Assembly (NCBI GenBank): GCA_937889945.1
Contig: CALBZC010000013.1
Span: forward strand, 46,432-110,431
Length of the DNA: 64,000 nucleotides
Direction: 5' to 3'
Source: an uncultured Bacteroidales bacterium
GTDB taxonomy: Bacteria > Bacteroidota > Bacteroidia > Bacteroidales > UBA4417
In this document: in pieces, positions 3,071 to 45,852 of the stretch
How the letters are laid out: every line of letters begins with the position of its first letter
Numbering within the stretch: position 1 is the first letter of the stretch
The notes under the pieces: generated by a model
The model's input: only the letters and a program-made list of their open reading frames with translations
The model's database searches: none
Told to the model about the DNA's origin: nothing
Program-made: the position numbers and the translations under genes

Positions 3071-3095
3071 CCTTAACTCTCAAAAGCCTTTGATT

Positions 3096-12000: not shown

Positions 12001-15000
12001 TTGAAACCAAAGACTTAATCGTTACAAGCAAAGATACATATTCAGGACAATGTCCTATTACTTTAATTCGTACATATACTGTAAAGGATTTGTGTGGAAA
12101 TAACGCTACCATACAACAAACCATAGAAATAAATGATACACAAGCTCCAGTAATCACCGGAAGTATACCCACCGAACATATAAGCGGATGTGAATTGGCA
12201 GTTGCTAATGAAAATTTGAATACGGTACCTCAATTTCTTGCTCAGTTTACTATGATAAGTATAACGGATTGTATATCAAATGACTTATTGAGCATTACCA
12301 AAAAAGATGTAGTAACTAAAACATCTTGCCCTATTACTATTGAAAGAACTTATACTATCACCGATATATGTGGAAAATCAAGCACGATTACCAGAACCAT
12401 ACTCATTGAAGATAATGAAAAACCTACTTATACAGGTAGTTTAAGTGATTTGAATATTAATGGTTGCCCATTATCGGATAAACCCTCAGCAGCTACAAAT
12501 TATAGCGAACTTGTAGGATTAGGATTGTTCGCCCATGATAATTGTACGGCAGACAATGATTTAAAAGTAACATCTTCCGATGCAGTTCCAACATCTGAAT
12601 GCCCAATTAAATTTGTCCGCACTTATACCATAAATGATGCATGTGATAATAGTTTAGTTCTTACTCAAAATATTTCTATCAATGACAATACAGCTCCTTT
12701 AATTACCGGAACTTTACCTACTACACCTATCCCCGGATGCGACATTAGTGCAGCACCTGCCCAATATAAAAATGTAGCTGAGTTAGAAGCTGCCGGATTA
12801 ACCATTACCGATTGCACCACAGATGATAAATTAACAGTAACGTGTGAACAGTCAACGGATAAAACGTGTCCCATTGTTGTGAAACGCGTATATACTGTTA
12901 CTGATCTTTGTGATAACAGTAGTTCATATACCCAATATTTCACAATAGAAGACAAAACGCCACCGACTATTAAAGATAAAGTTAACGGATTAATTGTTTC
13001 TACGCGTGATACACATGTCAATGGTTGTAAAATAACGGATGTTCCCGCTGCTAAAACAACAATTTTGGATATAGAAAAAGAGCTAAATGTTGATATTGCG
13101 GATGCTTGTTCAGGTAAAAACTTAACTTTCACAAGTACGGATAAACCCGTTCTTCTTACATGCCCATTCCATGTTGAACGAACATATACGGTTAAAGATG
13201 AATGCCAAAATTCTATTACAGTCATTCAAAATATTTATATTGAAGATAAAATAGCCCCTTCTGTTTCGTTACCTACCAAAGAAGTGAACCTAAGCGGCTG
13301 CAATACAAATATATTGCCATCTGCAACTCATAGTATCACTCAACTTGAAACGGATTTCGGATTTACTATTTCGGATAACTGTACGGCTAAAAACGAATTA
13401 ACATTTGTTTTCGATAAAGACACCCCCAATGGCAGTTGTCCTATTAAAGTTACACGCAGTGGATTTATTGTAGATAAATGTACAAATAGAACACCTATTA
13501 GCTTTGTATATAATATTGTAGATAATGAAGCACCTAAACTTGGCGGCATATTACCTACAGGAGAAACAAATATGAATATTTGTAGAGCTAATGCACCTAC
13601 AGGTCCTACAGAGGCTGAAATAAAAGCATTATATACAGACAATTGCAGCGATGTTACCGTAACAAAAACGGGAGGTGTTACAGGCGATGATTGTAGCTGG
13701 ACTGTGACTTATACTTATGCTATTGAAGACGCCTGTCATAATAAAGTTACGCCCTCACCCACAATCACTTACACTGGCGGAGACACAGAAGGTCCTCAGT
13801 TTACGCCTCCTGCTAATGTAAATGTAAATACGGATGCAGGCCAAAAATTTGCAACAGTAACCATTGCCGTTCCCACTGTTACGGATAACTGTGATGCTTC
13901 GCCGTTATTGGATAATAACAAAAACTCCGGTACAAATAACGCGAGTGGGCAATATCCTATTGGTACAACCACTGTGAAATATACTGCAAAAGACAAGTGT
14001 AATAATGTAACAGAGAAATCATTTACCGTAACGGTCACGGATAAAGAAGATCCTAAAATAACATGTAAAGCAGGCGGTCCTTTCAACAAGGATACCGATC
14101 CGGGTAAAGATTATTATACCGTTATAGGAACCGAGTTCGACGCGACAGCCACGGATAATTCAGGCACCGTTACATTAACAAACAATTTAAACGGCGGAAT
14201 TTCCCTAGCCGGTGTTCAACTTGGCTTAGGACCTAATTCTATAATATGGACGGCTACAGATCCTTACGGAAACAGTAAAACTTGTATTACTATTATCAAT
14301 GTTTCAGATAATGAACCGCCGCACATTGAATGTAAATTAGGTTCGCCGTTTAGTAGGAACACTGATAACGGACAACCTACTTATACGGTACAAGGTGAAG
14401 AATTTGATCCTGAGAAATTTGGAGATAATGTTGCAGGCGCTACTATTTCACACAACTTTACAGGAGCGCCAAGCACTACAACCTTAGCAGGAGCAAAATT
14501 ACCTATAGGTACGCACGATATTATATGGACTGTAAGAGATGTAGCCGGCAAAACAGCAACATGTACAACACGTGTAATAATAATCGATAACCAAAAACCT
14601 GAAATTACTTGCGTAGCAGGTTCTCCTTTTAGTAGAAACACAAATTCAGGCGCTAAAACATATACTGTGGTAGGCACAGAATTTAATCCTACAGTTGTAA
14701 GCGACAACTCTGGTACTTATACGCTAACCAACAGTTTTAACGGAACAAACACCTTAGCAGGCGCTACATTGCCAATCGGTTCTACTGATATTATATGGAC
14801 AGCAACTGATCCGTCAGGATTATTTGCAACATGCCCAATAAAAGTTATTGTCACTGATATTGAGCCCCCTGCAATTACATGTGCCGTAACAGGAAACCAA
14901 ACCATTACATTGGCTGCCGGAAGCAAAACATATACCCATAACGGAAAAAGTTGGGATGCCACGGCTACAGATAATGACGGAACAACTCCGGTTATGACCT

Positions 15001-18000
15001 ATACATTAAAAGATGACAAATCTGGAAATGTGATAGGAACAGGAAATTCATTAAACGGCGTTGTATTTAATATAGGTGAATATACTATTACCTGGGTGGC
15101 AACAGACCAAGCAGGCAACACGTCAACCAATCCTTGTGAGTTTAAACTTATCGTAAAAGACGATGAAAAACCTACATCATCAGCTAATTGTAATAATGGC
15201 GGACATTTTGACCGAAATATGGATAACGGCAAAAAAACATATACCATTAAAGCTACAGATAATTGGGATGTAGTATTTACAGATAATGACAAGGTTACCA
15301 CTCAAGGTGTTACCTTAAGCGGAGCCACTACCACAGCCACAACCTTAAGCACTTTGGTCGGGGTAGTACTAAACAAAGGTACTACAACCATAAAATGGGA
15401 TGCTATGGATGCAAGTGGCAACACATCCACTTGCCAATTTACGGTTACCGTTACAGATAATCAACCTCCGGTTATAAGTGTTTGTGAAAACAATATAACG
15501 TTACATGAAGCTAATACCGATGACGGAGTTAATACGTACACGGTTAAAGCAACGGATAATTGGGATGCCACTGTAACTGACAATGACGCTATGGCAAGTT
15601 TTACGGCTGTATTAAGCGGAGCTACCACAGCCACCATCAGCGGAACCGCTTACAGCGCCGGACCTCCTCCAGTAGCTTATATTCCGGCAACATTGGCAGG
15701 CACTACATTTAACATCGGAACCACTCATGTGAAATGGACTGCAACAGACATAAACGGGTTAACATCCGAATGTAATTTCACGGTAGAAGTTAAAGATATT
15801 GAAAACCCCAAACCTGATTGCCCTCCTACTTTGGATAAAATATACTATACGGATAACGGTGTGAGCACGTACACTATCAAAACCACCGATAATATAGATA
15901 TTTCCGCAACAGATAATAACGGTATTTTAAGTATTTCTTATGAATTAACAGGAAAAACAACCGGAACTGCTACAGGAACACCTAGTAGTCCCCCATCGTT
16001 GGTAGGGATACCTTTTAACATGGGTATTACCATGGTAAAATGGACTTTTACCGACAACTCCGGTAATAAGGCATATTGTTCCTATACTGTAACAGTAAAA
16101 GACTCTGAAACGCCTAAAATCACTAACTGTGTTGGGCAAGGATTATTATCTCCTGCTAGCGCGCCTGTTGATCCTGCCACCATTACCGATGCCATGCTTA
16201 TAACTGGAGGCTATGTGCAAACTGTAAATCCCGATTCCCATGAAAAATATTACACCCAAACAACTACCGCTTGGGACGCCACGGCTACAGATAATGTAAA
16301 CTTAGTTTCCATGACTTATAATTTAACGGGAGCTACAACAGGATCCGGCAACTCGTTACAAAATGCGAAGTTTACAGTAGGTCGAACACGTGTAACGTGG
16401 ACCGCTGTTGACGATTCCGGCAACAAATCTTACTGTATATTTATTGTAGATGTAGTGGATATCGAACCACCTACTTTAGATTGTAAAGGTATAGGAAGCC
16501 AAACAAAAAATACGGACGAAGGTAAAAATACTTATACTGTTCCTGATAATACTTGGGATGCAACAGCCACAGATAATGTAGAGTTATTTTCATTTGGATA
16601 TACGTTAACAGACCCTGATGGAGTAGTGGTAACAACAACAGGAACTACATTATATAACGTGTCCTTCAAAATTGGCACAAGTCACGTGAAATGGGTGGCT
16701 CGAGATATTTACGGATTAGAAGCTACGTGCGAATACGATATTACAGTAGTAGATAATCAACCGCCAAAATTCACAGACTGTGTAAATAGCCCTCTTGGTG
16801 ATAGAACTGTTGAAAACACACTAGGTAATACTTCATATATTCATAGCGGAACCGGATGGGATGCACACGCTACAGATAATGATTTTGTAGATGTATTTAA
16901 TGTTGAGCTAAGTGGCGCCACAACATTAACCATTGTAGGAAACCAAACAAATCCGCCTTCGTTAAACGGAGTTGAATTTAAGTCAGGACTTACCACCGTA
17001 CTATGGACTATTAAAGATAAAGCAGGACAAACAGTAACATGTTCATTCACGGTAAGAGTAATTGATACAGAACCACCTAAGCCGGATTGTGGCGCATTGG
17101 TAGATCAAACTAAAAACGCGGATGACGGTGTATCTACATATACACATACGGATAATTCTTGGAATGTAACCGCAACAGACAATGACGCGATAAAATCCAT
17201 GGAATACGTTCTTTCAGGTGCAACCACAGGTACGGGAAATACGTTGAACGGGGTTAATTTTAATGTAGGTTTAACACATGTATTATGGGTAGTAACGGAT
17301 AATTCAGACAATACAGCCACTTGTAAGTTTGATGTTACGGTTAAAGATAATCAACCGCCTAAATTAGACTGTGAGGCAGGTTCTAATAAATTGGTTACCA
17401 CAGACCCTGGTCTCAATGTATTTATTAAATCAGGAACGGATTGGGATGCGAAAGTAAACGAAAACCATCTGCTTAAAAGTTTAACATACACACTATCCGG
17501 TGCAACCAAAGGAACCGGTAGTACGTTAAATGGAACCGTATTCAAAATGGGAGTTACAACTGTTACTTGGATAGCAACAGATGTTTCAGGAAACGTATCT
17601 CTGCCTTGTGAATATACCGTTACTGTTGAAGATAAAGAACCTCCTGTAATTACCAACTGCGCCTTGATTACGGCAAATCCTATAATTACAGTTGTTGCAG
17701 AAATTGGCACCAATAAATATATTAAATTAGGAACAGACTGGGATGCAATTGCCACAGATAATGATGAAGTGAAGAGCGTGATTTACACTATGACAGGAGC
17801 AACCACTGGAACAGGTTATACACTAAATGGTGTACAGTTTAACATAGGCGAAACAACTATTACTTGGATAGCAACAGATAAGAGTGGTAATACCTCTGCT
17901 CCATGTACATTTATATTTAGGTTGGAAGATAAAGAACCTCCTAAAATATCAAATTGTAAAGATGGAAGCAACAAGGATGTGGATGCAGAACACGACAAAA

Positions 18001-20627
18001 CCACTTACACTGTTACCGACAATACATGGGATATTTCTGCTACCGACAATGATGCGATTAAATCTATAAAGTATGTACTTACAGGACAAACTACCGGCAG
18101 TGGCGATAACACGCTCAATGGAGTAACATTTAATTTGGGTGTAACAACTGTAAGTTGGACAGTGCTTGACGCAAGCGATAATTCAACTACATGCACCTAT
18201 ACTGTTACTGTTCATGACAGACAAAAACCGGATATTACCAACTGTCTTGATCAAAATAATAAGCAAGTACATACTGATCTTGATGTAAATACCTACACTC
18301 ATAAAGATAATACATGGGATGCCAAAGCCAAAGACAATCACATACTTGAATCATTAAAGTATGAATTATCGGGAGCCACCACCGGAAGCGCCACAGGCGA
18401 TGGAGTTAACACACCCACGCTTAACGGCATTGTATTTAATATGGGACTCACTACCGTAAAATGGACGGCAAGAGATGTAACAGGTAACGAATCTTACTGC
18501 ATTTTCACAGTAAATGTAAGCGATATACAACCTCCAAAAATAGACCATTGTGTAGATAACGACGACAAAACCGAATACTCCGGATTTGGCACTCCGACAT
18601 ACATCAAACATGGTACCGATTGGGACGCTACAGCCACCGACAATGATCCTCCTGTTAAATCAGTTACCTATGATTTAAATGGAGTTACAACAGGAACGGG
18701 AGCTTCATTAGATGGCGTTGCGTTTAATGTGGGTGTAACCAATGTAACTTGGACAGCTATTGACAAGAGCGGTAATTCATCCTATTGTATATTTAAAGTA
18801 ACTATTCCTGAACAGGCTAAACTTGAGATTATAAAAACGGCTAACCGTCCGAATGTTTCAGCTGTTGGAGATACCGTAAAATACAGCATTGCGGTTAAAA
18901 ACCTAAGTAACGTGCCACTCCATCAAATAATTGTTACCGACCCGTTAACAAAACTGCAGGATACAATTACTTCTCTTGCTATTAACGAACAAAAAATAAT
19001 TAATACAATGTATCTCGTTAAGCAGGAAGATTTAGATGTACCTAATGGGTTATTGACCAATATTGCTAGAGGCATAGGCACAACCCCCGGAGGCATTGAT
19101 ACTGAAACAAGCCATAGCGTTGATGTAGTTATTATCCAAAATCCAAGGTTGGAATTAGATAAAACAGCTGATAAAGAAAGCGTGAAGACTTTAGGTGAAA
19201 CTATAAATTATACAATAAAAGTTCAGAATACCGGAAACGTAACATTAACAAATGTAACTATTACCGACCCGCTGACCGCACTGAACCAAACTATTGCCAA
19301 ATTTAGCCCGAAGGAAGAAAAAGTATTTACTACTTCTTACGCGGTTACGCAAGCCGATTTGGATAGAGGTTTTATTGAAAATATAGTATCAGGCACTGCC
19401 GTTAATCCTAATGGCACAAACAGCACAGCTACTGACATTGTAAGAGTTAAAGCTATTCAATTACCAAGCTATAAGACGACAAAAGAATCGGATAAAAACT
19501 TGGTTAAGGATGTCGGAGAGGTTATTAATTATACCATAACTGTGACAAATAGCGGCAATGTAACATTAACAAATACTGAGGTTAAAGACCCGTTAACCGG
19601 ACTATCTCAAACTATACCGAGCATGAAACCGGGAGATGTTAGTTCATTTGTAACTTCATACACGGTAACACAAGGCGATATAGATAAAGGATATATTAAA
19701 AATGTGGTAGTTGCGAAAGGAAATTCACCCGATCCAAAAGTTCCTCCTATTGAAGGAGATACTACTAAAATTGTGTATGTTGCCATTGTTGCACGTCCGG
19801 ATACTGCCAGAACAACAGTAAGAGTTCCTGTAGATATTAAAGTATTAGCAAACGATACTACTTACAACAGGACGTTGGCTATGACTATAACGCAACAACC
19901 TATAGGTGGTTCCGTAATTATTAATCCGGATTTGACCGTAACATACATACCGTTAGCTGGTTTCTACGGAACAGACAACTTCATCTATCAAATCTGCACT
20001 ACTAATCCTACAATACCCGTTTCATGCGATACGGCAATTGTACGAATAAATGTAATTAAGTTACCTATTAAACCATCTGTAACTGAACATTACACCATGT
20101 ATGTAGATGATCCTCCAATTCAACTAAGTAACTTGCTTGATAGCATTACCAAAATAAAAGGAAAGTTAAAAATGATATACCAACCTTTCCACGGAACAGC
20201 TACTGTTAATGATGCTGACAGCACTATTTTCTATAAACCTTTACCCAAATATGTGGGCGACGATAACCTCACCTATGAAGTATCTGTTGATAACAAATGT
20301 GTAATTCACAATGCGGTTATACATGTATTACCAAGACCGGTACCTACAATTATCGTTCACAATGTAATTACGCCTAACGGTGATGGAATTAACGATTACT
20401 TGGTAATTGACAGTATTGAAAAATATCCTGTAAACAAAGTAACTATATTTGACAGATGGGGTAATACCATTACGGTTATAGAAAATTACGATAATAAAAC
20501 CCAACGTTGGGGAGGTATGTACAAGGATAACAGAAAAGTCGTTGACGGAGTTTATTATTATAAAATAGAATTGCCCGACAGAAAATCTATTTTAGGATGG
20601 ATACTGGTTCGCAGTTCACGAAGTTAA
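3096..20627 (+). CDS. Giant modular cell-surface protein/adhesin (~5,840 aa) with HYR-type Ig-like modules, DUF11 repeats and a T9SS type-B (gliding motility-associated, CHU_C) C-terminal domain
   Basis: One uninterrupted ORF. The track starts at TTG 3090 and the first ATG is at 3096. Signal peptide: MKNIYLVKKFTLCFCFSFLFISLSPFAYAQ. Many modules end in the x-V-T-V-x-D-x-x-x-P boundary typical of HYR domains. The C-terminus (ITPNGDGINDYLVIDSIEKYP..IFDRWGNTI..GVYYYKIEL..GWILV) matches the gliding-motility C-terminal domain consensus. Confidence 0.95.
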   Translation: MKNIYLVKKFTLCFCFSFLFISLSPFAYAQKEFTKRINNLHIKGDYILFGNTNMTLLNYATSTNNSLNQMIYVDIDNDASTLNSSKSKAYFSTENGAIPSCSKIKFAGLYWIGRAHDYANPSQSPNTFTVTKNGTTYNLNKRKVLLKGPRASTYTEFTANAEDILYPSYENDNLYTGFVDITNYVIAQTQDKITSDGDYYTVANIALREGNGGSVGYCGAWAIIIVYENSKMNWRDIAVFDGYKYMNAENSPKDLEIDGFKTSSKGNVNMKMGLLACEGDVGITGDYFYLLYNGNNTYPLKHSLNSTNNFFNSSIYTGKPFSVNDTDRDPNLKNNTGIDICMFNIYNPGNTYIKNNQTSATFRYGSSQDVYSISLIAMSVDAYVPEIDGSNLVTQLNGVNVTNTSPLTIEPGQPIGYTLDLQNSGTENILDSKIYIPLSSVTQNIKILKYEDGYPEPIIIPGGANVSIPGDPTAGYAKIPAPYGYIEWNIGEFKVGSHAQLKYSVESTTNCFSLRNPGCNPDGLNITTQAIIRGKGKTSETYITDGISNFGYTQGICKDPIWEKQKVNITNVDAFVAAHCGLPENKNLCPGVPEAKTEFKFAGRPTDSPIGTTYSWKNDNTAIGLAASGNGDLPAFTPINNGTTVLTANITVYPTKNGCTGNSITFKIYVNPAPKPTAPDITSCPHRGVITFAAIATPGYELQWYDAASGGSPLSNAPTANTEVLTPTTYTKYVSLKMTTPPYCEGPRVAVRVIVQDTEKPVITKCPPAYSAVGCNENDISTNLPYSPSPKSVSKTDFENVAGGGATDNCDIIDWSYQDTKQVNTTNIIISRTWTIKDWIGNSASCVQRITITNATPPTITCPADITQTITDANANCTKSILTPKPVIQQDYKCDWTISWVMTGATTSSSVITGQNYVDEHIFNIGVTTITYTVTNSFGASSSCTFKVTVLDGTNLNITKCPPAITKSGCAVNDLSKSGIPAYKTTETEVTQSIFEGQLGTTSKICGTVYYYYQDVLVNSSCPVTINRTWKVTDKGTRTATCVQVINLNDGINPYFKTCPPSVTKDLTGAASTIAITIADPGATDDGCGIKSLSWKIVYPTGYVPTNASGTGVIGTHNFPSGISTVTYTTLDQCNNAATCTFTVTVSDITPPNIPTCPPDKTLEGCSTADLLTSTVVNPAPAPATHLGYSETTVIVTKAQFEAEGGTATDNVGVVEYAYSDKKEATICPITVTRTWTVKDASGKTATCKQVFTIEDKTPPTLNWSQTNVTADAASNCAKKVSIALPTYSDNCTSNPLTLIWEIKDNKNVTIDKSPTTGINTINEYEFPIGILTFTYTLTDACNNSITKSFTVNIQDHTAPVITTCPEDRDITGCNTDALLAKLSLAYNETGTTVTSTQFSNAGGVASDNCAIKTYAYKDSKTGVCPIIVKRTWTVEDKYGNKNAIACVQTITIKDNTAPVLSCPPAPAPISITDNSNSIIVNTPNPTVIEDCTENPVTLTWEIKFPTGHVPPTETGTGNIGNHQFPIGTSTITYTAKNVCNLSSTPCSFEIKVIDNSNPTITKCPPAQSIEGCDENAIGAKWPTLPFSLVKKTVTENDFTTIAGGSASDNNGITEYIYQDVITSAANECPMKVTRTWTVKDAQGNATTCEQEIEIKDSTNPTIAQLANITQNLLADCKATIITTNPTYNDNCKVASLSYIITGALTDQSATTGIHFVGKKDFPVGTSTITYTVTDVCGNTASMHFDVTVIDNIPPKVSCPINKTIEGCDEKAIVPAYKTTETTITTTEFTNLGGTADDNCGIKSITYKDAITQASCPTKVERTWTVTDNNNQRVSCVQTITIEDQKAPEFTTFPANITQNIDGTTCSASVINNNPGEKDNCGVKTLTYIIRGATTKDSPLIGINYVGTQNFNAGVSTVTYTATDVCGKSTTQSYTVTVVDNLPPTITTCPPTQNLSGCSTSAIVSPLPVYSEIETNATAAEFGTGASDNCGALTYSYKDSQKIVGCVIEVSRVWTVKDRFNNTSTCTQIINIKDNDPPTITPPAKVTQAAGANCKATVTLQKPSYGDNCKVESLTWEITGATTGVSPTTGINELTSYEFNVGISTVTYTVKDACGAANTASFIVEVKDQSAPTITKCPTDRNISGCSENDLTGPVFSSTQRASTKEEFENTNLGGASDNCGITQYLYQDTKIDGCPITILRKWTVVDAANLSATCTQTIKIEDTEAPIFKTCPSNITANVTSECLANVTTPDPGVDDKCGLKSLTYKIEYGTDPPINSSTTGINLIGSRDFKVGVSTVTYTATDHCNKTATCSYTVTVVDNVPPTVICPSDVNVNTDLGTCEATVVLTTPFTDDNCGVASVTNNAPPTYPKGTTTVIWTVIDIHGNTTTCSQKVTVTDNENPIIKTCPSEKTLNGCDEAALSSTGLPFSLNTLHTATKIQFEGEGGVASDNCNVTEYNYLDVKRGSCPVIVTRTWIVKDENGNTSLPCTQTITIKHNNKPVIGTPNGSKIVNCISELVKPTLPVVNDYCGNSINPTLYSTTDSPNPLTCQGTREYVYRYQDCYGNFADWKFVYSLQAKDFTLPPNGSSKINCISEDVQPTPPTVKDACGTHNLTSIFKTRVVNPNICDSKATITYTYTYTDCSGNFSHDWKHVVTVLNDIPPTATQPLDITVECVGDVPGPNEKSIQNVKSHCGSPVNVTVTDDIRGNTCSKTLPYIIRTYTLEDCSGKKNTYTQNIFVNDITPPVMSKCPDMIKTTTAGGTASIIIPTPTVTDNCGSVTITHNSAYGTSSTNASGNYPIGSHLVTFTATDACGNESTCTVPVIVDDDNAPHMTCPPISSIICERELPTIPIYTTLDEYEAAAGATVTDAGTGVDRASFKFDGATKSGTCPTYIYRWYSVSDNANPKNWAKCVHTITVDDRQAPVITGTLPTLSVEGCKPADAPAAKTNGTDLAALLTGAGAGITDNCLETKDLIVTSKDTYSGQCPITLIRTYTVKDLCGNNATIQQTIEINDTQAPVITGSIPTEHISGCELAVANENLNTVPQFLAQFTMISITDCISNDLLSITKKDVVTKTSCPITIERTYTITDICGKSSTITRTILIEDNEKPTYTGSLSDLNINGCPLSDKPSAATNYSELVGLGLFAHDNCTADNDLKVTSSDAVPTSECPIKFVRTYTINDACDNSLVLTQNISINDNTAPLITGTLPTTPIPGCDISAAPAQYKNVAELEAAGLTITDCTTDDKLTVTCEQSTDKTCPIVVKRVYTVTDLCDNSSSYTQYFTIEDKTPPTIKDKVNGLIVSTRDTHVNGCKITDVPAAKTTILDIEKELNVDIADACSGKNLTFTSTDKPVLLTCPFHVERTYTVKDECQNSITVIQNIYIEDKIAPSVSLPTKEVNLSGCNTNILPSATHSITQLETDFGFTISDNCTAKNELTFVFDKDTPNGSCPIKVTRSGFIVDKCTNRTPISFVYNIVDNEAPKLGGILPTGETNMNICRANAPTGPTEAEIKALYTDNCSDVTVTKTGGVTGDDCSWTVTYTYAIEDACHNKVTPSPTITYTGGDTEGPQFTPPANVNVNTDAGQKFATVTIAVPTVTDNCDASPLLDNNKNSGTNNASGQYPIGTTTVKYTAKDKCNNVTEKSFTVTVTDKEDPKITCKAGGPFNKDTDPGKDYYTVIGTEFDATATDNSGTVTLTNNLNGGISLAGVQLGLGPNSIIWTATDPYGNSKTCITIINVSDNEPPHIECKLGSPFSRNTDNGQPTYTVQGEEFDPEKFGDNVAGATISHNFTGAPSTTTLAGAKLPIGTHDIIWTVRDVAGKTATCTTRVIIIDNQKPEITCVAGSPFSRNTNSGAKTYTVVGTEFNPTVVSDNSGTYTLTNSFNGTNTLAGATLPIGSTDIIWTATDPSGLFATCPIKVIVTDIEPPAITCAVTGNQTITLAAGSKTYTHNGKSWDATATDNDGTTPVMTYTLKDDKSGNVIGTGNSLNGVVFNIGEYTITWVATDQAGNTSTNPCEFKLIVKDDEKPTSSANCNNGGHFDRNMDNGKKTYTIKATDNWDVVFTDNDKVTTQGVTLSGATTTATTLSTLVGVVLNKGTTTIKWDAMDASGNTSTCQFTVTVTDNQPPVISVCENNITLHEANTDDGVNTYTVKATDNWDATVTDNDAMASFTAVLSGATTATISGTAYSAGPPPVAYIPATLAGTTFNIGTTHVKWTATDINGLTSECNFTVEVKDIENPKPDCPPTLDKIYYTDNGVSTYTIKTTDNIDISATDNNGILSISYELTGKTTGTATGTPSSPPSLVGIPFNMGITMVKWTFTDNSGNKAYCSYTVTVKDSETPKITNCVGQGLLSPASAPVDPATITDAMLITGGYVQTVNPDSHEKYYTQTTTAWDATATDNVNLVSMTYNLTGATTGSGNSLQNAKFTVGRTRVTWTAVDDSGNKSYCIFIVDVVDIEPPTLDCKGIGSQTKNTDEGKNTYTVPDNTWDATATDNVELFSFGYTLTDPDGVVVTTTGTTLYNVSFKIGTSHVKWVARDIYGLEATCEYDITVVDNQPPKFTDCVNSPLGDRTVENTLGNTSYIHSGTGWDAHATDNDFVDVFNVELSGATTLTIVGNQTNPPSLNGVEFKSGLTTVLWTIKDKAGQTVTCSFTVRVIDTEPPKPDCGALVDQTKNADDGVSTYTHTDNSWNVTATDNDAIKSMEYVLSGATTGTGNTLNGVNFNVGLTHVLWVVTDNSDNTATCKFDVTVKDNQPPKLDCEAGSNKLVTTDPGLNVFIKSGTDWDAKVNENHLLKSLTYTLSGATKGTGSTLNGTVFKMGVTTVTWIATDVSGNVSLPCEYTVTVEDKEPPVITNCALITANPIITVVAEIGTNKYIKLGTDWDAIATDNDEVKSVIYTMTGATTGTGYTLNGVQFNIGETTITWIATDKSGNTSAPCTFIFRLEDKEPPKISNCKDGSNKDVDAEHDKTTYTVTDNTWDISATDNDAIKSIKYVLTGQTTGSGDNTLNGVTFNLGVTTVSWTVLDASDNSTTCTYTVTVHDRQKPDITNCLDQNNKQVHTDLDVNTYTHKDNTWDAKAKDNHILESLKYELSGATTGSATGDGVNTPTLNGIVFNMGLTTVKWTARDVTGNESYCIFTVNVSDIQPPKIDHCVDNDDKTEYSGFGTPTYIKHGTDWDATATDNDPPVKSVTYDLNGVTTGTGASLDGVAFNVGVTNVTWTAIDKSGNSSYCIFKVTIPEQAKLEIIKTANRPNVSAVGDTVKYSIAVKNLSNVPLHQIIVTDPLTKLQDTITSLAINEQKIINTMYLVKQEDLDVPNGLLTNIARGIGTTPGGIDTETSHSVDVVIIQNPRLELDKTADKESVKTLGETINYTIKVQNTGNVTLTNVTITDPLTALNQTIAKFSPKEEKVFTTSYAVTQADLDRGFIENIVSGTAVNPNGTNSTATDIVRVKAIQLPSYKTTKESDKNLVKDVGEVINYTITVTNSGNVTLTNTEVKDPLTGLSQTIPSMKPGDVSSFVTSYTVTQGDIDKGYIKNVVVAKGNSPDPKVPPIEGDTTKIVYVAIVARPDTARTTVRVPVDIKVLANDTTYNRTLAMTITQQPIGGSVIINPDLTVTYIPLAGFYGTDNFIYQICTTNPTIPVSCDTAIVRINVIKLPIKPSVTEHYTMYVDDPPIQLSNLLDSITKIKGKLKMIYQPFHGTATVNDADSTIFYKPLPKYVGDDNLTYEVSVDNKCVIHNAVIHVLPRPVPTIIVHNVITPNGDGINDYLVIDSIEKYPVNKVTIFDRWGNTITVIENYDNKTQRWGGMYKDNRKVVDGVYYYKIELPDRKSILGWILVRSSRS
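3186..4250 (+). other. Unique (non-repeated) N-terminal head domain of the giant protein, about 355 aa
   Basis: This stretch has no internal repeat partner elsewhere in the protein. Landmarks: KGDYILFGNTNMT, FAGLYWIGRA, GGSVGYCGAWAIIIVYEN, LACEGDVGITGDYFYLL. Family not assigned. Confidence 0.6.
4251..5374 (+). other. Beta-sandwich / PKD-like / Ig-like (CHU_C-associated type) linker region of the giant protein
   Basis: DUF11-like stretch IEPGQPIGYTLDLQNSGTENI. PKD-like stretch TTYSWKNDNTAIGLAASGNGDLPAFTP..ITVYPTKNGCTG. Also GYELQWYDAASGGSPL, a motif common in Ig-like domains of Bacteroidota CHU_C proteins. Confidence 0.5.
5375..10595 (+). repeat. Block A: 9 Cys-rich 'RTWTV' modules alternating with 9 classic HYR modules (each about 90-100 aa)
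   Basis: By my count the order is R1 H1 R2 H2 ... R8 H8 H9 R9. R pattern: (I/V)TKCPP..x..GC ... DNCG ... Y.Y.D ... CP..V.RTWTVKD..GN..TC.Q.I.I.D...P. H pattern: C.A.V....P.Y.DNC.V.SL.Y.I.GAT......TGIN.....F.VG.STVTYT.TD.CGN...C.F.VTV.D..PP. Confidence 0.8.
10596..11866 (+). repeat. Transition block: 4 variant Cys-containing modules plus one HYR module
   Basis: Variant modules such as NGSKIVNCISELVKPTLPVVNDYCGN and NGSSKINCISEDVQPTPPTVKDACGT. One HYR module: VMSKCPDMIKTT..TVTDNCGSVTI..GSHLVTFTATDACGNESTC. Confidence 0.6.
11867..13795 (+). repeat. Block B: 7 tandem ~90-aa 'RTYTV' modules without intervening HYR
   Basis: Each reads AP(V/L)ITG(T/S)(L/I)P...(I/V).GC .... (A/I)TD(N)C ... CPI...RTYT(V/I).D.C.N......Q.I.I.D..(A/K)P. 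I count seven copies. Confidence 0.75.
13796..18810 (+). repeat. Block C: 17 tandem ~98-aa HYR-like modules carrying a W-D-A-T-A-T-D-N motif
   Basis: I count 17 module boundaries of the form V.V.D.(E/Q)(P/K)P. The recurrent core is TYT....WDATATDND...S..Y.L.GATTG.G..LNGV.FN.G.T.V.W.A.D.SGN...C.F.V.V.D..PP. Confidence 0.8.
18811..19780 (+). repeat. 3 DUF11 ('conserved repeat domain') repeats
   Basis: LEIIKTANRPNVSAVGDTVKYSIAVKNLSNVPL..VTDPLT, then LELDKTADKESVKTLGETINYTIKVQNTGNVTLTNVTITDPLT, then YKTTKESDKNLVKDVGEVINYTITVTNSGNVTLTNTEVKDPLT. Each is followed by Y.VTQ.D.D.G motifs. Confidence 0.85.
19790..20340 (+). repeat. 2 cadherin-like / bacterial Ig (Big_9-type) domains
   Basis: Patterns ARPDTARTTVRVPVDIKVLANDT...TVTYIPLAGFYGTDNFIYQI and ...STIFYKPLPKYVGDDNLTYEV. 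Confidence 0.55.
20341..20624 (+). other. T9SS type-B C-terminal sorting domain (gliding motility-associated C-terminal domain, CHU_C)
   Basis: HNVITPNGDGINDYLVIDSIEKYPVNKVTIFDRWGNTITVIENYDN..WGG......VVDGVYYYKIELPDRKSILGWILVR. Confidence 0.9.
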
Positions 20628-20640
20628 CAAGGTTTAATAT

Positions 20641-20674
20641 AAAAATAGCGCCTCGATTGAGGCGCTATTTTTAT
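20641..20674 (+). terminator. Rho-independent terminator of the giant gene
   Basis: Perfect 14-bp stem aaaaatagcgcctc / gaggcgctattttt with loop gatt, followed by a T-run. It begins 14 nt after the stop codon. Confidence 0.85.
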
Positions 20675-20781: not shown

Positions 20782-22743
20782 ATGAATAACCCTTTTGATG
20801 CTTTTGCCAATTACCAACAAACAAAAAAAGATATAGGTTATGTAGCGCGCCGGCAAGCTACGCAAGAAACATACAACCAACTGGGCTTCATGTCGGGATT
20901 GGAAGTGCACCAGCAACTCAACACCAAAGAAAAACTTTTTTGCCGTTGTCCGGCAGGTGTTTTTCAAAAACCCGATGACTTTGATGCGGAAGTTATACGC
21001 CACATGCGCCCCACGTTGAGCGAACTCGGCGAATATGACGGTACTGCATTAATGGAATTTAAAACAAAAAAGGAAATTATTTATCGCTTAAAAACCAAGA
21101 GCACATGCACATATGAAGTAGATGACACACCTCCTTTTCCTTTAAACAGGGAAGCTTTGGCGTATGCCATAGAAATATCGCTTGCATCAAAGCTTAATAT
21201 TGTGGGAGAAGTACACATTACACGCAAGCAATACTTAGACGGCAGCATTCCTGCTGGATTTCAACGAACGGCAATTATTGGTGTGGAAGGTGAAATCTAT
21301 TTAAAGAATAAAAAAATACGTTTAATACAGCTTAGCCTGGAAGAAGATGCTTGCCGCGAAGTTAGTGATATAGGACATAGGCGCATATACCGTACTGACC
21401 GCTTAGGTATGCCTTTAATTGAAACGGTTACATATCCGGAAATGGTGAACCCCGACGAAGTAAAAGAAGCCTGCAATTATATACGTTTCTTAGGGCGCAG
21501 CACAGGTAAAGTGCGTACGGGAATAGGCGCGGGAAGGCAGGATGTAAACGTAAGTTGCAAAGGAGGAACACGCGTAGAAATAAAAGGAGTAGCACACAGC
21601 AAGTGGATTCCTGAACTTACACATAATGAATGTTTCAGACAATGGGCATTGCTGCATATTAAAGATTTATTGGCACAAAAAGCAGAAAAACAACAGGAGT
21701 GGAAAATTTCACATGTAAAACTTGATATAAACACATTAAATAAAGAAAATGATTTTGTAAAATATGCGCTGGATAATAAGTTAGAATTAGTCGCGGTAAA
21801 CCTTTCAGGGTTTAAAGGTATCCTTTCTCATTTTACACAACCCGGAAAAATGTTTGCTAACGAAATCGCGGAAAGATTGAAAGTAATTGCCTGCATTGAA
21901 TTACCTAATATGACTCATTCCGAAGAACTTATACCACAGTTGGATAAAGATATATGGGCTAAAATATCAAGGTTAGTAAACGCTGCCCAAAATGATGCGC
22001 AAATTATTGTACGCGGACCTTCAGAAGATATAACAATGGCGCTGGATGTGATAGAAGAGCGTTGCAAAATGGCATTCAGCGGTGTACCACCCGAAACACG
22101 CAAATCTTTTGAAGACGGCACAACCATTTTTGAGCGCGTGTTGCCCGGTGCAGATCGTATGTATCCTGATACGGATTCTGCCCCTATCCCTTTGGATAAT
22201 GCATACATCGAAATGTTAGGAAAAAATCTTCCGGAAGAAATTATCAACAGATATCGTAAATTAAAATCGTGGAATGTGCCTGAAGATTGTTACACGTATA
22301 TTTTCTCCAAAAATTTATATCCCTTAATCGAAAAAATTAATACCGAGCTTGATATTCCTGCAACATTCGTAGGCAGGTTTTTAGGACATACCGTAAAATG
22401 GATTGAAGGACAGTTTAAACCGGCTTCGGCATTCGAATATTCAAAAATTTACGACATGTTTAAGTTTTTAAAAGAAAAAAATCTGAATCTGAATATAGCT
22501 AAACGCCTTTTAATGATAATATATCAACATCCGCAACTTGATTTTGAATCGGGGCTTTCCATGTTAAATTTTAAGCCTTTTACCGAAGATGAATTATTAA
22601 GTAAATTGCCATTTCTTAAAAATAAGTTTAAAGAAATTAAACTTTCTAAAGGTGATGTAGCGCATAAATGGCTGATGGGACAACTACGCATGCAAGCCGA
22701 AGGCAATATAGAATTAACAGCGCTTGCAAAAAAAATTAGCTAA
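20782..22743 (+). CDS. gatE: Archaeal-type glutamyl-tRNA(Gln) amidotransferase subunit E (GatE-like)
   Basis: 653 aa, which is GatE-sized and longer than GatB. Motifs: GLEVHQQLNTKEKLFCRC, RPTLSELGEYD, DDTPPFPLN, RKQYLDGSIPAGFQRT, LEEDACRE, DRLGMPLIETVT, GRQDVNVS..RVEIKGV, GVPPETRK..DGTT..LPGADRMYPDTD. A GatD-like gene is directly adjacent. Confidence 0.8.
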   Translation: MNNPFDAFANYQQTKKDIGYVARRQATQETYNQLGFMSGLEVHQQLNTKEKLFCRCPAGVFQKPDDFDAEVIRHMRPTLSELGEYDGTALMEFKTKKEIIYRLKTKSTCTYEVDDTPPFPLNREALAYAIEISLASKLNIVGEVHITRKQYLDGSIPAGFQRTAIIGVEGEIYLKNKKIRLIQLSLEEDACREVSDIGHRRIYRTDRLGMPLIETVTYPEMVNPDEVKEACNYIRFLGRSTGKVRTGIGAGRQDVNVSCKGGTRVEIKGVAHSKWIPELTHNECFRQWALLHIKDLLAQKAEKQQEWKISHVKLDINTLNKENDFVKYALDNKLELVAVNLSGFKGILSHFTQPGKMFANEIAERLKVIACIELPNMTHSEELIPQLDKDIWAKISRLVNAAQNDAQIIVRGPSEDITMALDVIEERCKMAFSGVPPETRKSFEDGTTIFERVLPGADRMYPDTDSAPIPLDNAYIEMLGKNLPEEIINRYRKLKSWNVPEDCYTYIFSKNLYPLIEKINTELDIPATFVGRFLGHTVKWIEGQFKPASAFEYSKIYDMFKFLKEKNLNLNIAKRLLMIIYQHPQLDFESGLSMLNFKPFTEDELLSKLPFLKNKFKEIKLSKGDVAHKWLMGQLRMQAEGNIELTALAKKIS

Positions 22744-22758
22744 GCGGATTTTTTATTA

Positions 22759-24165
22759 ATGATTTTAAAAACAAATTTTATGAGCGACGATATTTTTCAA
22801 GGATATAAAGGCGAAGCTTTAGAAATATTAAAGAATTATAATGTGCGCGTGTGGGGGCAGGCTGTAGTAAAAACCACACGGGGAGAGTTTATGGGAACCG
22901 TTTTACCCAGAGCGGAAAACGATGATACAAAGCACATTGTAGTAAAAATTTCTACGGGCTATAATATTGGCATTGACGTTGCCAACATTACCGATATGCA
23001 GGAAACCGGTTACAAAAAAGCCAATTATAAAATTCCAGAAAAAGAGTTTCCATATACACAAGGACTGCCCAAGGTAAAACTCATCGGCACCGGTGGAACA
23101 ATAGCGTCGAGGCTTGATTATCGTACAGGAGCTGTTATTCCTGCTTTTTCGCCGGGAGAATTATATGGCGCCGTTCCCGAGTTGGCTCAAATATGTAATC
23201 TTACTACAGAGAAAGTATTTGCCGTATTTAGCGAAAACATGGCGCCGGAAAATTACATTAAACTGGCAATTGCTATCGGCAAAGAGATAGAAGCCGGAGT
23301 TGACGGCATTGTGATAGGACATGGAACAGATACGTTGCATCACACAGCTGCCGCCTTAACATTCATGGTTCAAAACTCACCTATACCCATTGTTTTGGTA
23401 GGCTCGCAACGTTCCAGCGATCGTCCCAGCTCGGATGCCGCTCTCAACCTCATGCACGCCTGTACTGCAGCCGGCCATGGCGATATTGCCGAAGTAATGA
23501 TTTGCATGTTTGGTCCTACCAGCGATGAATACGGATTTTTGCACCGCGGCACTCGCGTGCGCAAAATGCACTCCTCCTATCGCTCTACATTCCGCACATT
23601 AGGCGATACACCTCTTGCCACAGTTACACGCAACGGCGTTAGCCCAATAAAGGATGTTTACAACAAACGTCGCCACGATAAAAAAGCCACTATATTGCCT
23701 TATTTTGAAGAAAAAGTGGCTATTGTATATTATTACCCTAATATGCAGCCTGACATTATTGATGCACTTGTTAATAATGGTTATAAAGGCATTGTGATTG
23801 CCGGCACAGGCTTAGGGCATGTCAACAAACCGCTTTATCCTGCCATAGAGCGGGCAACCCAAGCCGGTGTTGCCATATATATGACCGTGCAAACGCTATG
23901 GGGCTATGCGCACATGTTTGTTTACGATACGGGACGCGATTTGATGGCTAAAGGCGTTATACCTGCGGCAAACATGCTTCCCGAAGTAGCTTATGTAAAA
24001 TTAGGGTGGGCTTTAGGACAAACTTCCGATTTGGAAGAAGTAAAACGTTTAATGCTCACACCCGTAAACGATGAAATAACACCGCGAGAACCATATAATG
24101 GTTATCTTGTTTACCAAGGCGGAGTACCCGAGGTGGAGGAGTTTATAAGAAAAGTGCATAAATAA
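22759..24165 (+). CDS. gatD: Archaeal-type glutamyl-tRNA(Gln) amidotransferase subunit D (GatD-like, asparaginase fold)
   Basis: About 90-aa N-terminal domain followed by an asparaginase-type core. Motifs: GTGGTIASRLDYRTGAV, GHGTDTLHHTAAALTF, VGSQRSSDRPSSDAALNL. Starts 15 nt after the gatE stop. An alternative start is Met8 at 22780. Confidence 0.8.
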   Translation: MILKTNFMSDDIFQGYKGEALEILKNYNVRVWGQAVVKTTRGEFMGTVLPRAENDDTKHIVVKISTGYNIGIDVANITDMQETGYKKANYKIPEKEFPYTQGLPKVKLIGTGGTIASRLDYRTGAVIPAFSPGELYGAVPELAQICNLTTEKVFAVFSENMAPENYIKLAIAIGKEIEAGVDGIVIGHGTDTLHHTAAALTFMVQNSPIPIVLVGSQRSSDRPSSDAALNLMHACTAAGHGDIAEVMICMFGPTSDEYGFLHRGTRVRKMHSSYRSTFRTLGDTPLATVTRNGVSPIKDVYNKRRHDKKATILPYFEEKVAIVYYYPNMQPDIIDALVNNGYKGIVIAGTGLGHVNKPLYPAIERATQAGVAIYMTVQTLWGYAHMFVYDTGRDLMAKGVIPAANMLPEVAYVKLGWALGQTSDLEEVKRLMLTPVNDEITPREPYNGYLVYQGGVPEVEEFIRKVHK

Positions 24166-24636
24166 ATTTTAAAAAATAATTTATCACACGTAAAGTTTAA
24201 AAACAGAATACCCAATTCATCCCTAATATAAACCACATAAGAACATAGTTTCTTATATAGTTGTTTTAATTGTTTTAAACAGTTTCACATAATTACAAAA
24301 GCATAGTTTTTGCCGCCTTTATGCCCCCTATTGAATTGTCCTGTAGTTTTCATGTGTTTATAATTTTATTTTTGGTCACATGGAACTCGCACATAAACAT
24401 TCCCTTGTGTGTCCAAACTTAGTTTGTCGTGCTCGTTTCTTAGCATCAAATTCAATACTTGCGCATGCTAAATATTCAACTATGTTACCATGGGGCTTAT
24501 TATCATTAAAATTTGATTGAGCAAAAAGTATATGGGGAACTTATTTTTCCCAATTATACTAAGAGTAAATAAAGAGAAAGAACATTTTTTATACCATACA
24601 TCACATAAACTTCGAGTACTTATTTCTTAAACCCTA

Positions 24637-27798: not shown

Positions 27799-30700
27799 AT
27801 GTCTTCGCCTAACAAACCTGTTTTTTACACCGAAAACCCATCGCGCTGGAAAACTTTCTTATGGATTATAAAAATCATGACCGTAATTATCGTAATTGCA
27901 GCCATATCCATATTGCTTACCCTCTTACACAGTAACCATTTTCAAAAGCCTTCGTTACAAAAGCATCCCCAAACAATAGAAAAGTTGGTTATCTCAAAAA
28001 AAACCAACGATTTACAACGAAAAGATGTGGAATCTTTTTTGTCTTTAAAAAAGAAATACGAACAAAAAAAGCGGCATGACTTTTATTGCAAGTCTCACTT
28101 GGTTTACAATCCTCTTAAAAAACTATTACCAGTAAGCGCAGGATTTATGGTAAACTGGGACGTGCAATCGCGCTATTCCATGCACAAACACATATCATCC
28201 ATGAATATGATATTGCCCGAGTGGTTTTTTATTCAGGACAACTCAGATGAAATAGCTACAACCATCGATACCATTGCGCTCAACATCATGCGCAGAAACA
28301 ATGTGGCTATCGTGCCCATGCTCTCAAACTTTTACAACAACAAATGGAACAGTGATAATGTACACCGCATTATAAGCTCCAAAGCACGGCGTTCAAATCT
28401 TATAAGTTCCATAATTACCCAATTGGACAAATATAAATTTTCGGGCATAAATGTAGATATTGAAGATTTAAGAAAAGAAAATACCGATGAAAATATTATC
28501 GCTTTTCAAAAAGAGCTTTATGAACGTTTGCATAACAAGGGGTATATCGTGTCGCAGGATGTAGCGCCTTTTAACGCCGACTATAATCTGGAAGAGCTTA
28601 ATAAATATAATGATCTGATTTTTCTAATGGCGTATGATTTGCATAATGCGCCGTCAAAAGCGGGAGCCGTGGCTCCGCATAAGTGGGTTGAGCAGGCTTT
28701 ATTGGAAACATTAGGAAAAATACCGCCGCAAAAAGTAGTCCTCTGTTTGGCAGCATATGGCTATGACTGGCCCCAAAACCAAAAAGGCGAAGATGTTACC
28801 TACCAAACGGCTATTGCCACAGCGCTTGAAAGTGAAGGCAAAATAAAATTCGATTCTCTGACGTACAACCTTAATTATACCTATTGGGATGAGTTTGATA
28901 AACAGCATGATGTATATTTTACCGATGCCATTACAAACTTTAATGCCATGCGTTTGGCTGCAAACTACCAAGCAGCAGGGGTAGCTTTATGGCGGTTGGG
29001 TTCTGAAGACCCACGGGTGTGGAGGTTTTATAAAACAAACCTTAACGACTTTTATCTCAGCAAATTACCATTACAGTTCAAACAGTTTGAACACATTGCA
29101 TCTTCTTATGGGGTTGACTATTTAGGAACTGGTGAAATTTTATATGTAAAAGCCAAGCCCGAAACAGGAAATGCCGAACTAACTTATAATGCCGCATCAC
29201 AATTTTTTACGGATGAAAGGTACAAAAAACTACCCACAGATTATGTGGTGGACAGAAAAGGACGAAAGGTAAAAAAAGTAGTATTAAGTTTTGACGATGG
29301 TCCGGATAAAAGATATACACCTCATATTTTGGCTATATTGAAAAGATATGATGTACCCGCGGTTTTCTTTGTTACGGGCATTAACGCGCAACAAAACTTG
29401 CCTTTGCTGGAACGTATATATAACGAAGGACACGAAATAGGAAATCATACTTTTCTGCATCCCAACATAGCTCATATTTCAGACAGTCGCTTCCGGCTTG
29501 AACTCAGATATACTAATTCGCTTATAGAAGCCATGACGGGGCATAGCACTATATTATTCCGCCCTCCTTATGATATAGATGCAACACCTGCTGATGCCGA
29601 ACAGCTTATCCCTATCAACGTGGCGCAGTCTGAGGGTTTTCTCACAATAGGTAATGCCATTGACCCTTGGGACTGGAAAAAAGGTACTCCCGCGGATAGT
29701 ATTTACCAAAGAGCAGTAGAGCAAAAGGATTTAGGAAATATCATATTACTACATGATTCGGGTGGCGAACGGGAAGAAACAATAAAAGCACTTCCCCGTA
29801 TTATCGAATATTATAAAAATCACGGCTACCAGTTTGTGAGCTTATCCAATCTTATGGATAAAAACCGTGATTATGTGATGCCTGTAGAAAAAGGCATTAT
29901 AAACGATTATTTGCATTCTACCGACGCTACTGTTTATAAGGCAGGATATTATTTTGGTCAATTCTTGTCGGTATTATTCATGCTGGCGCTTATTCTTTCC
30001 GTTTTTAAAATAGTAATGATGGCGATTCTTTCTATTTATCAGAAAATAAAAGATAATAAAGAGCATACCAAAGCCAAACACAACGTACAACCTTTACCAA
30101 AGCCGCTTGTAAGCATTATTGTTCCGGGATATAACGAAGAATTGACGGCAGTGAAAACCGTTGAAAATCTTTTAAAAACAGATTATCCGCATTTCGAAAT
30201 TGTTTTTATTGATGATGGCTCAAAGGATAAAACCTATGAAATTGTACACGATACTTTTAAACAAAATGCCAACGTAAAAGTACTTACCAAAGTTAACGGA
30301 GGCAAAGCATCTGCTTTAAATTACGGCATTTCGCACGCAAACGGAGATATTCTTGTATGTATAGATGCCGATACGGTATTGAAAAGTGATGCCATATCCA
30401 AACTTATTGAGAAATTTAATAATCAAAAAGTAGCGGCTGTTGCAGGCAATGTAAAAGTAGGAAACCGGAACAAGCTTTTAACGCGTTGGCAAAGCATTGA
30501 ATATATTACCAGTCAAAACTTTGAACGCAGGGCTTTTGACATATTAAACGGCATTATGGTAATTCCAGGCGCCATTGGAGCTTTCAGAAGAAGTGCCGTA
30601 ATGGAAATAGGCGGTTTTGCCACAGATACTTTAGCCGAAGATTGTGATTTAACGTTGCGCCTGCTCAAGCAAGGTCATATCGTACATACCTGCAATGAAG

Positions 30701-44585: not shown

Positions 44586-44595
44586 GTTTAATAAG

Positions 44596-45834: not shown

Positions 45835-45852
45835 AATATTTTAAACTATAAA

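Follow-up and report, generated by a model that had tools for sequence, protein, structure and literature searches.

The heterodimeric tRNA-dependent amidotransferase GatDE has been described as exclusively archaeal, or as an archaeal signature protein, in papers and reviews up to 2022 (PMC2330236, PMC2811023, PMC8007984, PMC8762117, PMC9499178). Like the bacterial amidotransferase GatCAB, GatDE uses ATP to activate the amino acid bound to a mischarged tRNA, which is then amidated by tunnelled ammonia. GatB and GatE are paralogues that have a cradle domain and a YqeY tail in common; however, GatB lacks the insertion of GatE that resembles aspartyl-tRNA synthetase (AspRS), and GatCAB relies on the amidase-signature protein GatA together with GatC, whereas GatDE has GatD, of the asparaginase family, and no GatC. 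Here we analysed a stretch of 64,000 nucleotides (the window) from contig CALBZC010000013.1 of an uncultured Bacteroidales bacterium, which carries two adjacent genes, gatE and gatD. Our results suggest that this pair probably encodes a functional heterodimeric GatDE, belonging to a bacterial branch of the family for which an ancient archaeal transfer is the favoured origin.

The window pair has the same two subunits and the same domain order as the solved archaeal enzymes of Methanothermobacter thermautotrophicus (2D6F) and Pyrococcus abyssi (1ZQ1), and both active sites are alike: GatE keeps the His/Glu/Glu ligands of Mg2+, and GatD keeps its Thr together with Thr-Lys-Asp. The differences lie in the bacterial host, in the identity, which is only ~30-35%, and in the gene order. 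The window has gatE-gatD, whereas the archaea of the TACK group (Thaumarchaeota, Aigarchaeota, Crenarchaeota and Korarchaeota) have gatD-gatE and the Heimdall-type Asgard archaea have divergent genes. Among the archaeal loci that we compared, the Heimdall-type ones (L084 and L089) were divergent, those of Bathyarchaeia and Thermoprotei (L086 and L087) read gatD-gatE, and that of a member of the Promethearchaeota (L088) had the order seen in bacteria, gatE-gatD, with the two genes overlapping.

The 653-residue product of gatE passed both NCBIfam equivalog models of GatE (NF003107, 479.6 bits with a cut-off of 456; TIGR00134, 420.2 bits with a cut-off of 319.55) and stayed below the cut-off of all six GatB models (≤121.1 bits, cut-offs ≥315), the highest-scoring of which gave 121.1 bits against 338. 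This bears out the original prediction, made from the sequence without database searches, that the protein is GatE-like and not GatB. An ordinary GatB was rejected as the identity of this product, since the GatB models are missed by more than 200 bits and the protein has 653 residues and an insertion, compared with ~480 residues and no insertion in GatB. In support of this, residues 32-649 align to the GatE of M. thermautotrophicus (2d6f_C, 304 bits), and P. abyssi GatE also aligns, whereas the GatB chains in the PDB match residues ~118-290 only, with ≤77 bits.

GatE has the architecture of the family, namely the catalytic cradle of GatB/E, the insertion that resembles AspRS, and a helical tail of the YqeY type, the part with which GatE reads the D-loop of the tRNA. 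The Pfam domain GatB_N spans residues 38-477; the insertion (residues ~300-430) aligns to that of M. thermautotrophicus and has a high-confidence fold in the AlphaFold model; and the helical tail comprises residues ~487-652 of the model, aligning to the M. thermautotrophicus tail as far as residue 612. The model itself had a mean pLDDT (predicted local distance difference test) of 84.5 and a pTM (predicted template modelling score) of 0.83. Its best Foldseek matches were 1zq1_C and 2d6f, with E ~1e-42 and a target-normalised TM (template modelling score) of ~0.8, followed by GatB at E ~1e-21 and a weak match to AspRS, which is expected because GatE carries the AspRS-like insertion domain. Three residues (Table 1) correspond to His15, Glu157 and Glu184, the Mg2+ ligands of M. 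thermautotrophicus GatE (PMC2330236). They are invariant in two alignments (A1 and A3) covering bacterial and archaeal-like sequences. Of 76 bacterial sequences examined, nearly all retain the GatE motifs; one, L042, carries an interrupting stop.

The product of gatD scored 500.6 bits on TIGR02153 (cut-off 324) and 500.5 bits on NF003217 (cut-off 310), the NCBIfam equivalog models of GatD, compared with 378.5 bits on the type I subfamily model of asparaginases and 165 bits on the type II model. GatD resembles the type I L-asparaginases (E. coli AnsA, Pyrococcus) in that its core, ~103-441, passes TIGR00519 and keeps the catalytic motifs, and differs from them in having the GatD_N domain and an operon with gatE. 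Pfam placed GatD_N (PF18195) at residues 37-77, Asparaginase (PF00710) at 105-295 and Asparaginase_C (PF17763) at 319-432. Two archaeal GatD chains in the PDB match GatD over nearly its full length, 1zq1_A with 394 bits and 2d6f_A with 381 bits, whereas the free asparaginases there reach ≤137 bits and are without the N-terminal domain. We therefore rejected a plain asparaginase as the identity of this protein, the GatD equivalogs scoring ~120 bits higher with GatD_N present and gatE as neighbour, and the earlier naming of this reading frame as GatD and not type I asparaginase stands (500 against 378 bits, plus the GatD_N domain). The nucleophile is presumably the first Thr of the TGGT motif, an assignment that we make from general knowledge of asparaginases. 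The Thr-Lys-Asp triad (Table 1) is that described for GatD (PMC2330236). The motifs TGGT(I/V)A, HGTDT, V(R/K)KMH and QRSSDRPSSDA are present in 67/67 full-length bacterial GatDs, and all the motifs quoted in the original prediction were found in the two reading frames.

Table 1. Features of the gatE-gatD locus, in positions of the window
Feature	Position	Strand	Description	Basis
Hairpin	20639..20674	+	16-bp perfect stem, 4-nt loop, then T run; likely intrinsic terminator	Direct sequence read; inverted repeat 100% complementary
gatE	20782..22743	+	ATG start, 653 aa; tRNA-binding kinase/amidotransferase subunit	
GatE His43 codon	20908..20910	+	Equivalent to Mg2+ ligand His15 of M. thermautotrophicus GatE	Alignment
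GatE Glu187 codon	21340..21342	+	Equivalent to Mg2+ ligand Glu157 of M. thermautotrophicus GatE	Alignment
GatE Glu214 codon	21421..21423	+	Equivalent to Mg2+ ligand Glu184 of M. thermautotrophicus GatE	Alignment
gatD	22780..24165	+	461 aa; glutaminase/asparaginase subunit	Homologue-supported start
GatD Thr111 codon (468-aa numbering)	23089..23091	+	Presumed nucleophile, TGGTIAS	Motif and alignment
GatD Thr190-Asp191 codons	23326..23331	+	Part of Thr-Lys-Asp triad, HGTDT	Motif and alignment
GatD Lys269 codon	23563..23565	+	Triad lysine, VRKMH	Motif and alignment

Next, we looked at the distribution of the pair by scanning one genome per GTDB species. This gave at least 599 pattern matches, of which at least 597 were confirmed as GatE relatives, and the best 80 of these were all bacterial. 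Those 80 include Bacteroidales, with Lentimicrobiaceae, Tenuifilaceae and Marinifilaceae among them, as well as Ignavibacteria, Omnitrophota, Zixibacteria, Aminicenantes/Acidobacteriota, Cloacimonadota, WOR-3 and Phycisphaerae. Members of a further bacterial subgroup of GatE come, among others, from Zixibacteria, Calditrichia, KSB1, Aminicenantes and CSSED10-310. Carriers include cultured isolates (Marinifilum flexuosum DSM 21950, NZ_RAPQ01; Labilibaculum sp. K2S; and Perlabentimonas gracilis M08_MB) and closed chromosomes; OY820914.1, OY781043.1, OW818690.1, OY762964.1 and CP070718.1 also belong to this set of closed or cultured carriers. In addition, when 5.8 billion proteins were searched, at least 120 clusters with 67-76% identity came back, the named ones being called GatE of Bacteroidales, Lentimicrobiaceae or Lentimicrobium sp. 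The gatDE pair is present in many bacterial species of about a dozen phyla.

The pair is also conserved as an operon. In 70/80 bacterial loci gatD lies directly 3' of gatE, and 7 of the other 10 end at a contig edge. Across phyla, the median identity to the window proteins is 60% for GatE and 77% for GatD; since identity stays so high, strong purifying selection on gatDE is indicated. Clustering of ~1070 open reading frames (ORFs) from 81 loci yielded gatE and gatD as the only conserved neighbours; neither gltX, glnS, gatCAB nor a tRNA was found as a conserved neighbour in this set. The arrangement common in Marinilabiliales, lolE-like/gatE/gatD/nudix/mltF, has no link with translation.

Some individual loci deserve mention. 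In L042 (10001-11965) GatE is cut by a stop or frameshift near the N-terminus, being either a pseudogene or an assembly error, and 2.4 kb downstream of this pair there is a tRNA-Glu gene, the sole tRNAGlu in a scan of the window and the 81 loci. The GatE proteins of L062 and L074 have ~745 residues, each with a low-complexity, repeat-rich insertion of ~85 residues in the tail domain, at two different positions; that of L074 partly coincides with a masked stretch. No gatD was seen within 8-10 kb of gatE in L004, L005, L012 and L090; in these genomes it may lie elsewhere or have been lost. L085 (CP070751.1, 3719581-3737518) comes from a 5.16-Mb chromosome labelled 'Thermoplasmata archaeon'; its GatE and GatD fall within the bacterial clade, beside Phycisphaerae, and the label is probably wrong. 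A glutamine synthetase gene separates its divergent gatD and gatE. The GatE and GatD proteins of L053 (labelled Zixibacteria) and L063 (labelled Ignavibacteria) are near-identical, with branch lengths of ~0.01-0.02, so that either one of the labels is wrong or a transfer was very recent. The auto-assigned labels 'Eubacteriales', 'Thermotogae', 'Lentisphaeria' and 'Rikenella' also stood at unexpected positions in the tree, the first two inside Bacteroidales-like clades.

With at least 597 GatE genes, the best 80 of them all bacterial and some from cultured isolates, the status of GatDE as an archaea-only signature, on which the original prediction had also leaned, fails. What fails is the literature's claim on distribution; membership of the enzyme family is not at issue. 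The prediction had offered the acquisition of the pathway by this one lineage as an explanation. This does not hold either: carriers are common in Bacteroidales and occur in about a dozen further phyla of bacteria, and their sequences group into one bacterial clade. Nor was the fear of mis-annotation as a plain asparaginase borne out: NCBI and JGI records already call the homologues of the first gene GatE, and the naming models of NCBIfam for GatD are well passed. It had further been considered that the pair might prove both widespread and already described in Bacteroidota. Widespread it is; however, we found no paper describing a bacterial GatDE in a full-text search, outside which most subscription journals lie. 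Since the NCBI and JGI names are already correct, the databases hold the fact on which the literature is silent, and it is the statement in the literature, not the annotation in the databases, that needs updating. We are therefore dealing with a known enzyme in an unexpected domain, in a bacterial branch that is widespread, annotated and apparently undescribed. This matters because the archaea-only claim supports arguments on how the pathways to amide aminoacyl-tRNAs are partitioned between the domains, and has also been used to explain why archaea never acquired glutaminyl-tRNA synthetase (GlnRS).

To place the bacterial branch we built neighbour-joining trees from Kimura-corrected distances. 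In a GatE tree of 199 sequences, every labelled bacterium and no known archaeon fell into one clade, with a bootstrap of 100/100 and a stem of 0.19. A second GatE tree, of 87 sequences, was based on a more accurate alignment and included sequences with Asgard, TACK and euryarchaeal labels; for the Heimdall-type, Bathyarchaeia, Thermoprotei and Promethearchaeota contigs, we checked from the neighbouring genes that they are archaeal. Here the bacterial clade again had 100% support, and its sister was the Heimdall-type Asgard clade (80-84%), a grouping whose support fell to 71% after Dayhoff-6 recoding and to 68% when only the slower two-thirds of sites were used. Independently, the GatD tree also recovered the bacteria as monophyletic (100%) and joined them with Asgard, at 84-89% when E. 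coli AnsA was the outgroup, 62% when recoded and 99% without the outgroup. AnsA itself joined the Euryarchaeota/TACK side, with weak support. The trees argue well for one old bacterial clade of GatE and one of GatD, and with moderate support they point to the Asgard archaea as the nearest relatives of this clade for both subunits. The original prediction had asked whether the two proteins nest inside archaeal clades: they stand, with moderate support, beside Asgard (62-99%), and the bacteria form a clade of their own (100%).

Insertions and deletions were less informative. Those that bacteria and Asgard appeared to have in common in a fast alignment were lost in an L-INS-i alignment, which left only an N-terminal extension of ~30 residues in GatE, common to bacteria and Heimdall-type sequences only; as the apparent shared set did not survive the better alignment, we did not use indels for the Asgard link. 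Bacterial GatE has two indels of its own, a 2-residue insertion at 373-374 and a 1-residue deletion after 494. We also tried the GatB of Mycoplasmopsis cynos as an outgroup to root the GatE tree, and discarded this rooting as long-branch attraction: it was unstable, with the outgroup pulled towards a single long branch and support for the monophyly of the bacteria down to 48%.

We favour an ancient transfer from archaea to bacteria, after which the genes descended vertically and also spread to some extent among bacteria, as the history most consistent with these trees, the direction and the timing of any such transfer being our inference. The alternative involves no archaeal transfer: bacterial GatDE would have been inherited vertically from the last universal ancestor, most bacteria having lost it. 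A review recounts a published proposal of this kind, with both GatCAB and GatDE in that ancestor (PMC9499178), and the monophyly of the bacterial sequences (100%), their deep divergence and their occurrence in many phyla would fit it, as would the unstable GatB rooting, in which the root fell between the domains in 22% of the replicates. However, the AnsA outgroup in the GatD tree falls on the Euryarchaeota/TACK side and leaves Asgard and bacteria together, and without a root, the GatE and GatD trees both have the bacteria branching beside Asgard and not at the archaeal stem. Moreover, the carriers are concentrated in the FCB (Fibrobacteres-Chlorobi-Bacteroidetes) group and a few other phyla, so that vertical descent would require very many losses. 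We consider this history unlikely.

Archaeal-type lipid genes offer a parallel. In bacteria, those for geranylgeranylglyceryl phosphate synthase (GGGPS) and digeranylgeranylglyceryl phosphate synthase (DGGGPS) fall into a clade that is largely monophyletic and has its centre in the FCB superphylum (PMC6431249). Their carrier phyla overlap with those of bacterial GatDE, a parallel in distribution only, as function and family are unrelated. Together with the possible Asgard affinity of GatDE, this overlap hints at a common history of archaea-to-bacteria transfer.

Regarding function, the pair is orthologous to archaeal GatDE in both subunits, with its domain architecture and its catalytic residues intact, and its operon and sequence are conserved across phyla. 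Substrate, tRNA specificity and physiological role we infer by analogy, and the most likely function is the amidation of Glu-tRNAGln to Gln-tRNAGln. As modelled on the solved archaeal enzyme, a GatD dimer would bind two GatE subunits. A glutamyl-tRNA synthetase of the non-discriminating type would make Glu-tRNAGln, which GatE would bind, phosphorylating with ATP the gamma-carboxyl of the glutamate at the Mg2+ site formed by His43, Glu187 and Glu214. GatD would hydrolyse glutamine or asparagine with its Thr nucleophile and the Thr-Lys-Asp triad, and the ammonia would pass through an internal tunnel to GatE, displacing the phosphate to give Gln-tRNAGln. The pair may provide either the main route to Gln-tRNAGln, replacing GlnRS, or a second route beside GlnRS.

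Several observations weigh against this reading. The trees are neighbour-joining only and their root is not firmly placed. On the GatE of the window, the Pfam domain GatB_Yqey reached 16.4 bits with a cut-off of 27, and the GAD insertion, which Pfam detects in other bacterial and archaeal members, was not detected; the YqeY-like tail of this protein is diverged, as judged from its sequence. In 3/80 loci gatD is absent within 10 kb of gatE, and in three or four genomes no gatD adjoins gatE. The 64-kb window and the 7.4 kb further upstream contain no genes for tRNAs, aminoacyl-tRNA synthetases or GatCAB; no tRNAGln was found there or in the 81 related loci, and neither the window nor the surroundings of the pair yielded an aminoacyl-tRNA synthetase or a GatB. 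Bacterial tRNAGln normally has the pair U1-A72, which is presumably what the window enzyme reads. By contrast, archaeal GatDE recognises the pair A1-U72 (PMC2330236), so that either the recognition has changed or the substrate differs. Finally, Bacteroides, Barnesiella, Alistipes and 'Bacteroidales bacterium CF' have GlnRS and asparaginyl-tRNA synthetase (AsnRS) and no GatCAB, according to a 2014 survey (Table S1 of PMC4206432). A direct route may therefore already be in place, in which case GatDE would be superfluous or have some other use.

On the premise that Gln-tRNAGln in Bacteroidales is already supplied by GlnRS, a true GatDE homologue could have been repurposed, for another acyl-tRNA (for instance Asp-tRNAAsn) or for a tRNA-dependent pathway outside translation. 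Besides the GlnRS and AsnRS of the reference Bacteroidales without GatCAB, such a shift would be in keeping with the long stem of the bacterial clade (0.19 substitutions per site) and its own insertion and deletion, with the divergence of the insertion and tail domains beyond the reach of Pfam, and with the different archaeal identity element. On the other hand, the catalytic residues of both active sites are all kept, the tRNA-binding tail and the insertion are retained in the model, and no conserved neighbour hints at a new pathway. GlnRS is probably uncommon in several of the phyla that carry gatDE, and where this is so the canonical role would be required. Repurposing seems improbable to us, and amidation of Glu-tRNAGln is the function that we retain.

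A more specific scenario can be proposed tentatively, and we hold it to be less probable than not. The bacterial GatDE would have been acquired long ago, as one monophyletic lineage, from an archaeon related to Asgard, and would serve FCB-group and allied lineages, this organism included, as the working route to Gln-tRNAGln and perhaps as the sole one; its tRNA recognition would have been re-tuned from A1-U72 to U1-A72, and it would stand in for GlnRS and GatCAB. If true, such an Asgard-derived and re-tuned glutamine route would overturn the status of GatDE as an archaeal signature and would amount to a natural experiment in the co-evolution of a tRNA-dependent amidotransferase with its tRNA identity set. 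Since the bacterial clade is large and conserved and has members in culture, the recognition of bacterial tRNAGln becomes directly testable, as well as the coexistence of GatDE with GatCAB under an archaeal-like division of labour, or the replacement of GlnRS, and the time and source of the domain crossing.

The genomic setting of the pair is that of an ordinary Bacteroidota chromosome. The upstream neighbour is a giant secreted adhesin (window 3090-20627, + strand; 5845 residues with a TTG start in the ORF list) with a C-terminal type-B sorting domain of the type IX secretion system (T9SS), and the downstream neighbour, on the opposite strand, is lepA. The window also carries genes for an LptC-like protein, gapA, mgtE, relA/spoT, purA, hcp, dpp7 and a methylmalonyl-CoA mutase subunit. 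The flanking adhesin gene and lepA are as had been proposed. gatE-gatD sits in the middle of a 112-kb contig, with Bacteroidota hallmark genes on either side. Its GC content and GC at third codon positions (GC3) are 0.384 and 0.327 for gatE, and 0.445 and 0.398 for gatD; the host genes measured ranged from 0.38 to 0.43 and from 0.27 to 0.42, respectively, so that only the overall GC of gatD lies slightly above the range. As the original prediction had noted, scars of a mobile element are absent: no meaningful flanking repeats occur around gatE-gatD, and no bacterial GatE was found among 72,556 plasmids. The exact GatE protein is present on 13 contigs from several samples. Given these flanks, the host-like composition, the lack of repeats and plasmid copies, and the 13 contigs, contamination and recent transfer are excluded for the pair. 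Public labels in this family are indeed unreliable (the 'Thermoplasmata archaeon', 'Eubacteriales' and 'Thermotogae' cases), yet the notion of an artefact, be it a mis-assembled or mis-binned archaeal fragment or an over-read GatB and asparaginase, is refuted by the contig context, the composition, the same operon in cultured isolates and closed bacterial chromosomes, the low identity to archaeal proteins (only ~30-38%) and the model scores, and its probability is negligible.

The two same-strand, adjacent reading frames, separated by 15 nt, were confirmed where they had been placed, the longest ORF of gatD running from an ATG at 22759 to 24165 (22759..24165, 468 residues). However, the likelier product has 461 residues. 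The public gene calls for this contig (ENA ERZ724078, NODE_188) start gatD at the second Met, window 22780, and the bacterial homologues mostly have ~461 residues and the N-terminus M(S/N)(D/E)D(I/L)FQGYKG, matching the second Met. As public calls and homologues agree, translation more likely starts at 22780 than at 22759, which widens the spacer to 36 nt.

A hairpin lies between the adhesin gene and gatE (Table 1). It is likely the intrinsic terminator of the adhesin gene, and gatE-gatD is therefore probably a transcription unit of its own. A scan for sigma-70 promoters and terminators gave counts at the level of shuffled sequence; such a scan is ill-suited to Bacteroidota promoters. The adhesin itself has 5843 residues in the public gene calls and contains HYR, CLIPPER, Big_9 and DUF11 repeats. 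On the other side, the convergent stops of gatD and lepA are separated by 470 nt of AT-rich DNA (24166-24636) with no ORF and no Rfam match.

Elsewhere in the window, an MCE-family gene, an amidase gene and an 879-residue ORF (49996-55048) lie 27-30 kb from gatDE, and homologues of the three are found ≤2-4 kb from gatDE in about ten related genomes (for example L010, L022 and L027). This spacing points to an ancestral neighbourhood that has been locally rearranged. The only Rfam match in the window is a flavin mononucleotide (FMN) riboswitch (RF00050, 114 bits) at 47699-47820 (- strand), upstream of a ribD-ribE-ribBA-ribH operon (44124-47597, - strand). Finally, the ORF at 27799-31185 (+ strand) encodes a 1128-residue protein that combines GH18, polysaccharide deacetylase and PgaC/NodC-like family-2 glycosyltransferase domains in one chain, an unusual all-in-one design for making and de-acetylating a polymer like chitin or poly-N-acetylglucosamine (PNAG).

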